Shown: piece by piece, positions 1,121 through 64,000 of the stretch | Numbering within the stretch: the first letter of the stretch is position 1 | Layout: the number at the start of each line of letters is the position of its first letter | Assembly: GCA_964016885.1 (NCBI GenBank) | Contig: CAXHJY010001274.1 | Coordinates: 90,941 to 154,940 of the forward strand | DNA: 64,000 bases | Direction: 5' to 3' | DNA from: Eledone cirrhosa | Taxonomy: Eukaryota | Notes under the pieces: model-generated | What the model was told of the DNA's origin: nothing | Database searches by the model: none | The model's input: only the letters and a program-made list of their open reading frames with translations | Position numbers and translations under genes: made by a program

Positions 1121-1214
1121 TAGATATATGTATATATATATATATATATGTATATATATATATATATCATAGAAAAAAGAGAATCAATGTTGCGACGAAA
1201 GGAATTTATTGGAC

Positions 1215-1303
1215 ATATTACAATTGTTTCTCGGGGGACCAGCTCGAAGCATGATCGATATGTTGATCAGACCTGACTCTGAAATCTCTCGGTCGTCAGA
1301 TAC
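1215..1303 (-). ncRNA. Type I hammerhead ribozyme motif (stem II decayed)
   Basis: Minus: gtat CTGACGA [long stem II] GAAA caattg TA atat; AATAAA follows. Confidence 0.6.
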
Positions 1304-2287
1304 GTCTCGATTCTACGAAGCAGATTTTCCAATAGTCCTTTAACATCGACTTTCTTCGTTTGTTGATTTAGATCCTGTTGTTGCCATTCCATGAGTGGTC
1401 AAGAATTGTACACGTCACCAGTATTTCTAGCCACTCATGGTTGCCCACTTCTTGATTCTTCTCGTTCTCCACCTGTCAATCAAAATTTCTTCCTGTATCA
1501 GAATTACTACTGTGGTGGGAGAGGGGCTGTAATCTTGAACGGCTGGCATCACTTCGAAGTCTTCATGCATCCTAGGGGCCTTAGTCTACATCGGTCAGGT
1601 ACACACCCGCAATTATGCTGTATGCGGCAGTCATAAATAATGTTTTGTGGGAATTTTTTTTTTTTTTAGACCATAGGGATATTTAGAGTAACATTTGTAG
1701 GACACAGCCTTAGGATACACTCCGCCATACATATTTCAAAAAGATGCTTCACAAGTATAAATTAAAATGAGAAACCAACCTCATATCTAAGTCACACATG
1801 TACAAACTCACCAGAAGAACGTTTCGCCATTTTAGTATATATATATATATATATATATACAAACACACACTAATTTAAGGTATCACAATATATATAATAC
1901 GTATGATGATTATGTGTTTCTCAATAGAAAAGCTCAGTGGACATTTGCCCAGAGCATGAATAATTCAAATTGAAAGATATATATATATATATATATATAT
2001 ATATATATATATATATATATATATATATATATATATATATATATATATACAGAGAGAGAGAGAGAGAGAGAGAGAGAGAGAGAGAGAGAGAGACGTATAT
2101 CAGAGGATTCGTCCTTGGATAAGTTCCAATAGAGTAGAGAGTAGTTTTATATATGTTAGGATCCGAGAGTTAGACCAAAACAATAGACAGCATGATGTGA
2201 GAACGTTTTAACTGTGGAGATAGATATAAATTTGTATTCTATACTCTATTGTACTCTATACTCTATTGGAACATATCCAACGATGAA

Positions 2288-2404
2288 TCCTCTGATGATT
2301 AGTTTCGCGTCTCCCGTAGTTTTACCAAAATCTGGTAATTGATAGTCGATTATTTAGATCGACTATCAATTACGGTTTACGAACTATGAAATGGTACCAT
2401 AAGT
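2288..2404 (+). ncRNA. Type I hammerhead motif with long stem II and weak stem I
   Basis: cct CTGATGA tagtttcg..(16-bp hairpin gtaattgatagtcgat/atcgactatcaattac)..cgaacta t GAAA tggtacca TA ag; 2098-2140 is an inverted copy of 2250-2296. Confidence 0.6.
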
Positions 2405-2832
2405 AAATGAGAACTTTTCCACCTTAAAGTACGTATTTTTTCCTAAATATTATGTGCTATAAATATGTAGAAAATACCATGTTGTTCTCAAACGATATAT
2501 GGCTTTTTCTCTCTCTCTCTCTCTCTATATATATATATACACACACATATATCTTTTAATTTGAAATTATATATAGATAGATAGATAGATAGATAGATAG
2601 ATAGATAGATAGATAGATTTCTTTATTTACCATAAAGGCATAAAAAGAAGGGACAAATACAAAGGGGGAGTTTACATATAATCGAGTAAAAAGGGTGTAA
2701 CATGAAAATAATCGAAAATAACCTCAAAAGGGAGGGGACGTGATGGGGGTTGCACACACCCCCGAAAAAGTGTGCAATCCTTTGCCCGGGGAGCACATGG
2801 AGAAGGTGCTCCCCTCTCCTTTACTTCTTTAC

Positions 2833-61974: not shown

Positions 61975-63063
61975 ATATATATATATATATATATATATAT
62001 ATATATATATATATATATATATATATATATATATATATATGGTGGGTATGGGTGAGTAGTAAAGGAGTTCGTTTCTCAATCACGTAGGCAATGACTTGTA
62101 CTATGCCTTTCGGCTAACCAATACCTTGAGTGAAATTTGGTAGATGAAAACATCGTGTGTGTGTGTGTGTGTGTGTGTGTGTGTGTGTGTGTGTGTGTGT
62201 GTGTGTGTGTGTGTGTGTGTGTGTGTGTGTGTGTGTGTGTGTGTTGTAAAATAGTGTTTTGCATTGATATCATTGTTTATATGTAGATGAGGTGACGAAA
62301 TAGCAAAATCCTTAGTTCGGTGAATTAAAATTTCCTCTGTATTGTTTTATGGTTCTTTGCGTTTTAAAATATCAATTTCACCTGTGATCATCTGGGGGTC
62401 GATCAATAAAGTACCAGTGCAGCTCTGAGTTAATCCGGTTAATCCGCCCATCTCTCTCTCTCTCTCTCTCTCTCTCTCTCTCTCTCTCTCTCTCTCTCTT
62501 CATTTCTATCTCTGAAACAATTCGTCTGTATCCAACCCTTGAGATGTGTTCCGCCGTATGTTTGGACAGCAGCCCTACTACCCATTCAAGAGAGAGAGAG
62601 AAAGAGTGTGTGTGTGAGAGAGAGAGGAGAAAGAGAGAGAGAGAGAGAAGGGGGGGGGGGGTATAAAAAAGAAAGAGAAATAGAAATGGAAACTCCAGAT
62701 GCCCATGGTTCCTGGTTTGGGGATAAACGATGGAAAACCTCACCATAGGGTTTACACTCCAATGGATTGTGATTTGTGTATTTATTATATCTTATATTAG
62801 AGGAAAGCTAAATCTTGAGTTATATTAAACATAAATTTAACAGGCTTATCAGTAGTTTAAGTTAACGATTATTTAGTATCAGAATGTAAATGGGTGGTAG
62901 TAGCAGCTGTTCATTTCCCACAAATAAAATTGAACGGAAGATTTATCTGTAGGTTCTTAAAGTAACTTTCTTGAATCACCTGAATGCATATCCTTTTAAA
63001 ATATGTATATATATATATATATATATATATATATATATATATATATATATATATATATATATA

Positions 63064-63376
63064 TCATCATCATCATCATCATTTTACGTCCGCTTTTCCC
63101 CTGCTTGCAAGGGTAGGACAGGAACTGATTCTGGCTGGATTTCTACAGCTGGATGCCCTTCCTAACACCAACCTCATTTAGAGTGAGTGCTGGGTGCTTT
63201 TTTGCCGTGGCACCTCCACGACCACCTTGCAGTGGAATGATATGGACCCCAGTCCCTATCATCTCATTTCTAAAGCTGAGTAAACAGGAGCAACGTGAAA
63301 TAAAGTGTCTTGCTCAAGGAAACAACACATCACCCGGTCTGAGAATTGAACTCACAACCTTTCGATTGCAAGGCCA
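63064..63376 (-). mobile_element. SINE family 1 copy, 5'-truncated by (TA)n
   Basis: Matches 51772-52180. Confidence 0.8.
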
Positions 63377-63551
63377 ATATATATATATATATATATTTAG
63401 GAAGTTATAGTTCACTTGAAGCATTGTGTAATGGGGTATAAACGTTTGAATTTGTAAAGCCAAACAATGCAGGTATGGACATAGAATAAAAAATGCGAAT
63501 GCAAAAGATATTGTTGACAATTAGTCTTTTACCTTAGATTTATTTAAATGT

Positions 63552-63586
63552 CCTTAATTTTCGAGATAATATCTCTTCTTCGGAGG
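63552..63586 (-). ncRNA. Degenerate minimal hammerhead motif (CCGAAGA core)
   Basis: Minus: cct CCGAAGA agagatattatctc GAAA at TA agg, AATAAA downstream. Confidence 0.4.
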
Positions 63587-64000
63587 GAAGTAAAGCGGTT
63601 AAACTAGTGTTCTAAATAGCTTGCCCAAGTCATGTTGACAGGAAATGGTATTGAGTATCTGTTCTATCTCTAATGTCAAAGAGTTAAGTTTAGGTGGATA
63701 AAGAGTAGTCTCCCTTTAAAAGGGTTTTTTTGTACATGTCTGTTTAAGTGTGTGGGAAGATGCGTGAATGTGTAAGTATGTGTGTGTGTGTGAGTGTGAG
63801 AAGATATGTCTTAACGTAAATGTGGGGGATAGATGATCTCTCGTGTTAGATCTGGTCTTTGTGTGTGTATGTGTGTGTGTGAGAGAGAATAAGTGGAGGT
63901 GTAAGCGCGTGTGTGTGGGGGGGGGGGGGGGGTATGTGTGTGCGTGCATGTGTGTGTGTGTGTGCGGGGGTGTAAGTATGGGTCTAGAAGCTCTATCAAG

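Follow-up and report, generated by a model that had tools for sequence, protein, structure and literature searches.

How did a 64-kb stretch of the Eledone cirrhosa genome come to hold more than twenty hammerhead ribozyme (HHR) motifs, and what would they do there? The stretch, called the window below, makes up the final 64 kb of a contig of 155 kb (CAXHJY010001274.1) in an assembly of 2,996 Mb in total. We hold with high confidence that the motifs are type I hammerheads belonging to the 3' ends (pseudo-long terminal repeats, pseudo-LTRs) of many Penelope-like element (PLE) families, probably for the most part members of the Hydra clade, and that the window is just a moderately rich part of a genome expected to carry about 10^5 to 4 x 10^5 such motifs. 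The window families are new members of a known element type, of which one octopus family has been published; the scale appears not to have been counted before. The original prediction, read from the sequence alone, was mostly right in its observation and right in naming PLEs as the source, while the RNA cutting that it deduced is unproven.

Hammerhead motifs in the window

The permissive type I descriptor used to score motifs covers the core and a list of its variants, both helix I and helix II, and helix III in either hairpin or palindrome form; site calls were made at scores of at least 22, and counts and densities at scores of at least 25. A strict descriptor demanded perfect 4-bp helices, with U.U at positions 10.1-11.1 optionally allowed. 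An initial strict scan gave 8 window motifs, and forms with long helix II or U.U escaped it. The permissive scan gave 24 motifs at 22 or above and 21 at 25 or above, a count that is partly fitted because the scoring was devised after the window motifs had been inspected.

About 27 motifs from more than ten families had been predicted. It turned out that 21 of the 27 sites score at least 22, with CUGANGA or its U3-A8 variant, GAAA and UH in type I order, and that all 27 map to HHR-bearing repeat families; the others are one family-wide variant (63552) and five decayed or truncated copies. Core variants are family-wide at 56827 (U4A) and 63552 (U4C). Intact relatives exist for the damaged sites 15569, 52452 and 61871, and four of five relatives of the damaged site 40391 score at least 25. 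By manual grouping the 27 motifs represent about 17 insertions. Counting 13 clusters that include a window motif and 3 families below threshold, there are 16 families in the window. Of these, 14 cover the predicted sites, which confirms the figure of more than ten. Besides, two motifs had gone unnoticed, 37438-37482(+) and 56302-56346(-). The low-scoring matches at 41669 and 3708 look spurious, the former (score 24.7) being probably a chance match, and a candidate core at 12188 was rejected, as it has no helix I and no relatives in the genome sample described below.

No hammerhead reaches the Rfam gathering score anywhere in the 64-kb window. In E-value mode, which is dominated by microsatellite microRNA models, the only HH9 match among 150 of 410 matches listed is 56286-56357(-), with 37.7 bits (E 6e-06), below the cut-off of 52.

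Dinucleotide shuffles, the control proposed with the original prediction, did not approach the real density: 200 shuffles each of the whole window, of 500-nt blocks and of 200-nt blocks averaged 0.13-0.19 motifs at 25 or above and never exceeded 2, against 21 in the window, and the reversed window gave 0. When only the core and a 5-bp helix I were required, helix III was a perfect palindrome in 24 of 36 hits, compared with 0 of 5 in five-fold shuffles. Helix III is absent or a short palindrome in 12 of 16 distinct window motifs and in 58 of 64 sampled ones. Among 16 copies of the commonest family, that of the motif at 9060, both sides are changed in 6 of the 9 pairs of helix II and in 1 of the 8 pairs of helix I; the helix II covariation score was reached by 0 of 500 shuffles, and slid controls were far lower. 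Chance matches in AT-rich, low-complexity DNA would fit the lack of Rfam gathering-score matches and the few spurious-looking low-scoring hits, but this reading, to which we give practically no credence, is already refuted by the shuffles (at most 2 against 21) and by the palindrome and covariation tests, which lie outside or beyond the descriptor.

Genome-wide density

To set the window in its genome, 58 evenly spaced 10-kb stretches (579,400 bases; 0.02% of the genome) were scanned. They contain 74 motifs at 25 or above (1.8 when shuffled), which is 128 per Mb (bootstrap 79-190), or 105 per Mb without one sampled tandem array, and the permissive count extrapolates to about 383,000 motifs genome-wide (238,000-569,000). 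The strict descriptor found 17 (22 with U.U allowed) and 0 in five shuffles, giving 29-38 per Mb and 88,000-114,000 genome-wide. The genome is therefore predicted to carry about 100,000-400,000 HHR motifs. Sample and window together hold 108 motifs, which fall into 35 clusters.

The density claimed as extreme is only about 2.5 times the genome mean, with 21 motifs against 8.2 expected per 64 kb (P ~0.04 against resampled pseudo-windows), and a six-unit array helps to raise it; strict counts are near expectation (2-3 against 1.9-2.4), and the 40 kb beside the window contain 4 motifs at 25 or above. It is the genome-wide load that is high, and the window is no special locus. This load, roughly one intact-looking hammerhead per 8-35 kb over a 3-Gb genome, is invisible to Rfam at the gathering score. 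If the scale is true, the genome would be a strong test bed for the in vivo role of PLE hammerheads, and tens of thousands of intronic insertions would allow a powerful test of selection on sense versus antisense copies. The families also make up a natural library of core variants (U3-A8, U4A, U4C, and U.U and C.A at 10.1-11.1).

Among other animals, Schistosoma mansoni has tens of thousands of canonical motifs and could rival Eledone cirrhosa per Mb. Published counts include 126,247 canonical type I HHRs in axolotl and more than 6,000 in a coral (PMC7229834), about 9,000, 4,000 and 3,300 minimal hammerheads (min-HHRs) in Xenopus, coelacanth and S. mansoni, respectively (PMC4209133), and 235 hammerheads found by Rfam in giant squid (PMC6962438); these are not like for like because descriptors differ between studies. 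Our literature search found no genome-wide octopus hammerhead count, though Lunse et al. 2017 and the supplements of PMC4209133 and PMC13282606 may contain cephalopod counts. A repeat study of O. vulgaris reports 31 recently active PLE families and, in the parts of it used here, does not mention ribozymes (PMC13282606). The scale in Eledone cirrhosa may be a record among genomes. A bolder proposal, which we put forward only tentatively and think rather doubtful, is that this genome exceeds the HHR load of any genome in the published counts found, with up to about 400,000 motifs in at least 35 families against 126,247 in the nine-times larger axolotl genome. Such a load would come from a Hydra-clade Penelope radiation homing to TA microsatellites, and would be dense enough for long-range dimerisation within families, so that the host would have to tolerate, purge or silence self-cleavage inside its genes.

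Origin from Penelope-like elements

The window contains one full-length, frameshifted Hydra-type PLE (52436-56192, minus strand) with a reverse transcriptase (RT) and, at the C terminus, a GIY-YIG endonuclease, its open reading frame (ORF) pieces at 53230-55563, lying between (TA)n tracts. Its pseudo-LTR hammerheads are located at 52452-52545(-), with helix I broken, and at 55560-55653(-), with an inverted copy at 56000-56093(+). Intact relatives have 784-codon ORFs and form head-to-tail arrays with a 3,531-bp period and one HHR per unit, and in intact elements about 1 kb separates the endonuclease from the HHR that follows it. The same family is represented in the window by five short fragments of its 3' end, most of which end at a common point before (TA)n. 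Very short Hydra-type PLE 3' ends, some of them hairpins, occur at 8675-8773, 12833-12975, 14758-14800, 38225-38354 and 39329-39540, and retain at most helix III and the cut site, with no full core.

The intact ORF at locus L077 carries the Hydra diagnostics RWR, DKT, CxCx5C and CxxC..E..N..CxH and no CCHH, an absence judged by eye. The RT motifs RLRWR and SDKTG are found both in this ORF and in the window copy. The CxCx5C linker, and CxxC and CxH around the E and N of the C-terminal GIY-YIG, are present in L077, L114-L119 and L122-L128, while the window copy has lost one linker cysteine. The endonuclease-side diagnostics were found in two further families. An assignment to the Neptune clade was dropped once the element was compared with the Hydra clade definition of Craig 2021. 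Tandem Hydra-type PLE arrays with open ORFs lie at L077 (G000:C1:437.20-437.21 Mb) and L078 (C1:91.47-91.49 Mb), where many near-identical copies suggest recent PLE activity.

The hammerhead of the 38652/38846 family lies on the same strand, about 1 kb 3' of a Hydra-type endonuclease, at 7 of 8 loci, and that of the 56827 family lies on the same strand 3' of such an endonuclease at 6 of 8 (seed locus included in both). The 63552 family has its HHR 3' of a canonical CCHH-type GIY-YIG at 3 of 5 loci. In total, four window families are tied to PLE endonuclease ORFs (three with Hydra motifs, one canonical) and (TA)n stands 3' of the cut site, which bears out the predicted PLE origin; the pseudo-LTR location is established for these 4 of 16 families. 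Judged from sequence, the HHR-bearing PLE families are likely mostly of the Hydra clade. At L143-L145, the endonuclease of a canonical CCHH-type PLE is followed by a separate HHR family, with scoring motifs in L143 and L144.

Target sites and truncation

Enrichment next to (TA)n had been proposed as a check, and it was found: a (TA)n tract occurs in the 200 nt downstream of the cut in 12 of 16 cases from the window (null 15%) and 48 of 59 from the genome sample (null 12%); for the upstream side the figures are 6 of 16 and 21 of 59. The bias is downstream, and therefore the polarity fits PLE 3' ends, with the element ending about 50-200 nt beyond the cut site and abutting (TA)n. That almost all motifs lie in 100-600-bp islands bounded by (TA)n is overstated: with (TA)4+ as the bound, 13 of 27 do (13 of 22 sites with the array counted once). 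AATAAA does follow several motifs (6 of 16 within 60 nt downstream, against a 6.7% background); the AT-rich tails in which it sits lie 3' of the cut, and one family cannot be taken as independent of another. The claim that much of the seemingly unique DNA consists of ribozyme-bearing elements is right only in part: hand-drawn intervals give about 14.6 of 64 kb, which shrinks to 7.0 kb when the array and the full-length element are excluded.

Short 3' stubs make up the majority of copies and frequently have an inverted twin (located no more than 2 kb away for 7 of 21 window motifs and 29 of 74 sampled ones), and such twins match the inverted 5'-truncated copies described for PLEs. Solo copies share a common 3' end and differ at their 5' ends, as expected for 5' truncation. 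Under the known PLE model, the GIY-YIG endonuclease would nick (TA)n, and reverse transcription would begin near the RNA 3' end and usually abort early, so that the ribozyme region would be the most-copied part and elements would accumulate in shared microsatellites. At L021 700-4800 (G000:C2:80,000,700-80,004,800), nested hammerhead elements and microsatellites form a palindrome of about 4 kb; inverted repeats of this type could be substrates for A-to-I editing if transcribed.

The 615-bp array and retrozymes

Six identical 615-bp units and a partial unit occupy 33055-36807 (minus strand), each of the six with one U3-A8 type I HHR, at 33299-33433 and then every 615 bp to 36374-36508. The unit has a longest ORF of 47 aa, 36% GC, a circle fold z of -2.9 and a 78-nt helix II region, and near-identical arrays exist on many contigs (at least 184 matches; 23 scored of 511 candidates). 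Tandem, non-coding, below 45% GC and dispersed, with a type I HHR in all 6 units, the array fits a young non-LTR retrozyme by its sequence. A 56827-family PLE 3' tail abuts it at 36808-36885(+), 98.7% identical to the tail behind the HHR at 56827, and is probably a separate insertion. Mobilisation of the array by a 56827-family PLE was considered and dropped, because the tail is absent at the only other array end seen (L098). A contig set of unknown kind that closes as a 615-nt loop was not used, since tandem DNA gives the same. In the related run X5, variants within 33375-33437 fall at the free N7 and the unpaired 10.1, with none listed at conserved core letters (low depth, single contigs). 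Locus L030 (1-3400) holds a second retrozyme-like array, with 11 hammerheads and a 310-bp period.

Could most short copies be independent non-autonomous mini-elements, retrozymes spreading as circular RNA, instead of truncated autonomous PLEs? The non-coding 615-bp unit with its circle fold and many near-identical arrays would fit this, as would the 310-bp array and the 12 of 16 window families that have no ORF link. On the other hand, the four families checked run into PLE ORFs, and solo copies are alike at the 3' end and variable at the 5' end. We consider this explanation unlikely for the majority, with a real chance nonetheless; for part of the set it is true, and it is compatible with an origin of the motifs in PLE 3' ends.

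Predicted cleavage and host effects

For most motifs, weak RNA cutting is predicted when no second copy is there to pair with. Helix III is palindromic and dimer-type in 12 of the 21 intact window motifs, and a same-strand homologue within 2 kb exists for 0 of these 12 and for 17 of 68 sampled palindromic motifs (11 from one array). Predicted monomer helix III stabilities are -8.8 kcal/mol for the array, -6.5 for 55560/56000 and -3.6 for 56827, and by this modelling the hairpin types could cleave alone, whereas most palindromic types (9282, 38846, 58629 and others) would lack a helix III as monomers and depend on another copy. Transcripts of 38540-39030 and 59060-59340 are predicted to fold into near-perfect duplexes enclosing the ribozyme. 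The ribozyme would serve to release unit-length RNA from tandem transcripts of active elements or retrozymes, cutting as a dimer with palindromic helix III and as a monomer with hairpin helix III. Dispersed solo copies, for the most part, would be passive by-products. Small PLE hammerheads reportedly cleave as dimers, in work by Lunse et al. in 2017. A published S. mansoni min-HHR did not cleave as a single copy, and dimers cleaved only to a low degree (PMC4209133); 8 of 9 Xenopus dimers did not cleave.

Several points weigh against our overall interpretation. The covariation alignment consists of related sequences selected by the descriptor. The genome estimate comes from the 0.02% sample and a purpose-made descriptor, and varies four-fold with stringency. 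Twelve of 16 window families are without an ORF link; for the 9282 family a link was sought once, with a query that belonged to a neighbouring, different element. A Hydra-type protein served as the seed of the ORF search, which biases the phrase "mostly Hydra", and HHRs are found on canonical CCHH-type PLEs of this genome as well. Pfam names no domain in the PLE ORF, and a PDB search of it was likewise empty. Finally, there are many young, intact copies, a transcript could be cleaved while it is being made and before a duplex forms, and with so many copies, partners from one family could find each other over long distances or in trans.

The young intact copies, the motifs with a stable monomer helix III and the possible meeting of distant partners would also suit a different reading, in which dispersed hammerheads are broadly active, cut read-through or intronic host RNA and shape the transcriptome. 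Three 10-kb intron stretches from two genes (30 kb) contain 0 motifs, which would fit selection against them, and retrozymes are reportedly depleted in Xenopus introns (bioRxiv 10.64898/2026.07.22.740005). The intron result has P ~0.1, however, as 27 of 58 random stretches are also empty, and the scarcity of nearby same-strand partners, the predicted duplexes of inverted pairs and the largely inert S. mansoni and Xenopus constructs all speak against broad activity, which we regard as improbable. The statement that the motifs would cut any read-through or intronic transcript is thus unsupported, and this functional consequence was probably overstated.

Individual motifs and other repeats

Along the window, the motif at 1212-1306(-) is type I with palindromic helix III, C.A at 10.1-11.1 and a long helix II (score 30.7). 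The one at 2287-2406(+) belongs to an old family and is decayed, with helix I broken and a score below threshold; its relatives, about 81-84% identical, score in 0 of 7 cases, and their alignment points to an HHR. Dimer-type, type I motifs are found at 9060-9120(-) (score 38), whose family is the commonest in the sample and gave the covariation, at 9282-9336(+) (score 36; dispersed copies 93-100% identical), at 13209-13264(-) (score 30; U.U at 10.1-11.1; 3 sampled relatives) and at 58629-58671(+) (score 30; U.U at 10.1-11.1; 6 sampled relatives). Two further members of the 9060 family form an inverted pair, 59115-59179(-) and 59243-59307(+), with scores of 26 and 34 and 127-nt arms of 98% identity, and another, 15766-15818(-), is slightly decayed (score 28).

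The motif at 37438-37482(+) is U3-A8 type I (score 29) and has an inverted decayed partner, the arms being 37062-37237 and 37318-37493. At 38001-38078(-) a type I motif with a short hairpin helix III (score 28.3) is followed by DNA 72% like a Hydra-like PLE 3' untranslated region. The dimer-type pair 38652-38722(-) and 38846-38916(+) lies within a 305-nt, 99% inverted repeat and is a Hydra-type PLE 3' end. The decayed motif at 40390-40434(-) has U4G and a broken helix II. At 56302-56346(-) is the type I motif (score 33) that Rfam matches as HH9. The motif at 56827-56877(+), type I with a U4A core and U.U at 10.1-11.1 (score 23), sits in a Hydra-type PLE 3' end that forms the island 56550-56987. 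The 61686 family includes a type I motif with hairpin helix III and weak helix II at 61686-61734(-) (score 22), a decayed one with a helix III pair broken at 15569-15619(+), and one at 61871-61918(-) cut at an inversion junction, with helix I lost and a partial plus-strand copy next to it. The minimal motif at 63552-63586(-), with U4C, a bulged A after A9 and a 3-bp helix I (score 18), is identical in 5 of 5 relatives and belongs to a young PLE family with canonical GIY-YIG.

No host gene was identified in the window, whose long non-repetitive ORFs are those of two L1/Tx1-like long interspersed elements (LINEs) and one PLE. The full-length LINE at 2833-8019(-) has an open 575-aa ORF1 and a 1,152-codon ORF2 (endonuclease, RT and zf-RVT by Pfam); it has a decayed relative at about 19333-24688, and L082 holds a further open ORF2. 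Short interspersed copies of tRNA-like type are located at 52091-52221(-), 867-975 and 63182-63378, one with 31.2 bits against Rfam tRNA. By sequence inspection, a 43-bp satellite and a TA-containing satellite of about 33 bp lie at about 29700-31660 and 46420-48030.

Comparison with known systems

Like known non-LTR retrozymes (PMC7229834; bioRxiv 10.64898/2026.07.22.740005), the 615-bp array is tandem, non-coding, low in GC and dispersed, with one type I HHR per unit. Its unit exceeds the 170-400 nt retrozyme length yet falls within the span of 51-972 given by Li et al. in bioRxiv 10.64898/2026.07.22.740005, and the array, known here from DNA alone, differs in its U3-A8 core and 78-nt helix II region.

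The metazoan PLE min-HHRs of Cervera & de la Pena 2014 (PMC4209133) resemble the window motifs in being type I and dimer-type, with palindromic helix III and a U3-A8 variant, mostly dispersed as singles and also occurring in opposite-strand pairs 100-700 bp apart. They number thousands per genome, against about 10^5 or more in Eledone cirrhosa with another descriptor. Their G10.1-C11.1 pair is present in only 6 of the 16 motifs from the window and 16 of the 64 from the sample, and U.U and A-U are equally common.

In protein, the elements resemble Hydra-clade PLEs, including Hydra-1_Obim of Octopus bimaculoides (PMC8557442), with which they share a C-terminal GIY-YIG without CCHH, DKT, RW[K/R] and the CxCx5C linker. 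Among the extra families, "a small number" in the words of Craig et al. 2021 (PMC8557442), one is from an octopus, whereas Eledone cirrhosa has several divergent families with about 36-55% protein identity. The unit is 3.5 kb here and generally below 3 kb in the Hydra PLEs described there, window HHRs with U3-A8 and U4A cores and long helices II are unlike theirs, and, compared by eye, the HHR given for Hydra-1_Obim matches no window family. Both sets target (TA)n and carry a type I HHR at the 3' end, frequently with U.U at 10.1-11.1, and this U.U, present in 17 of 64 sampled motifs, is the form in the Hydra HHR table of the same paper.

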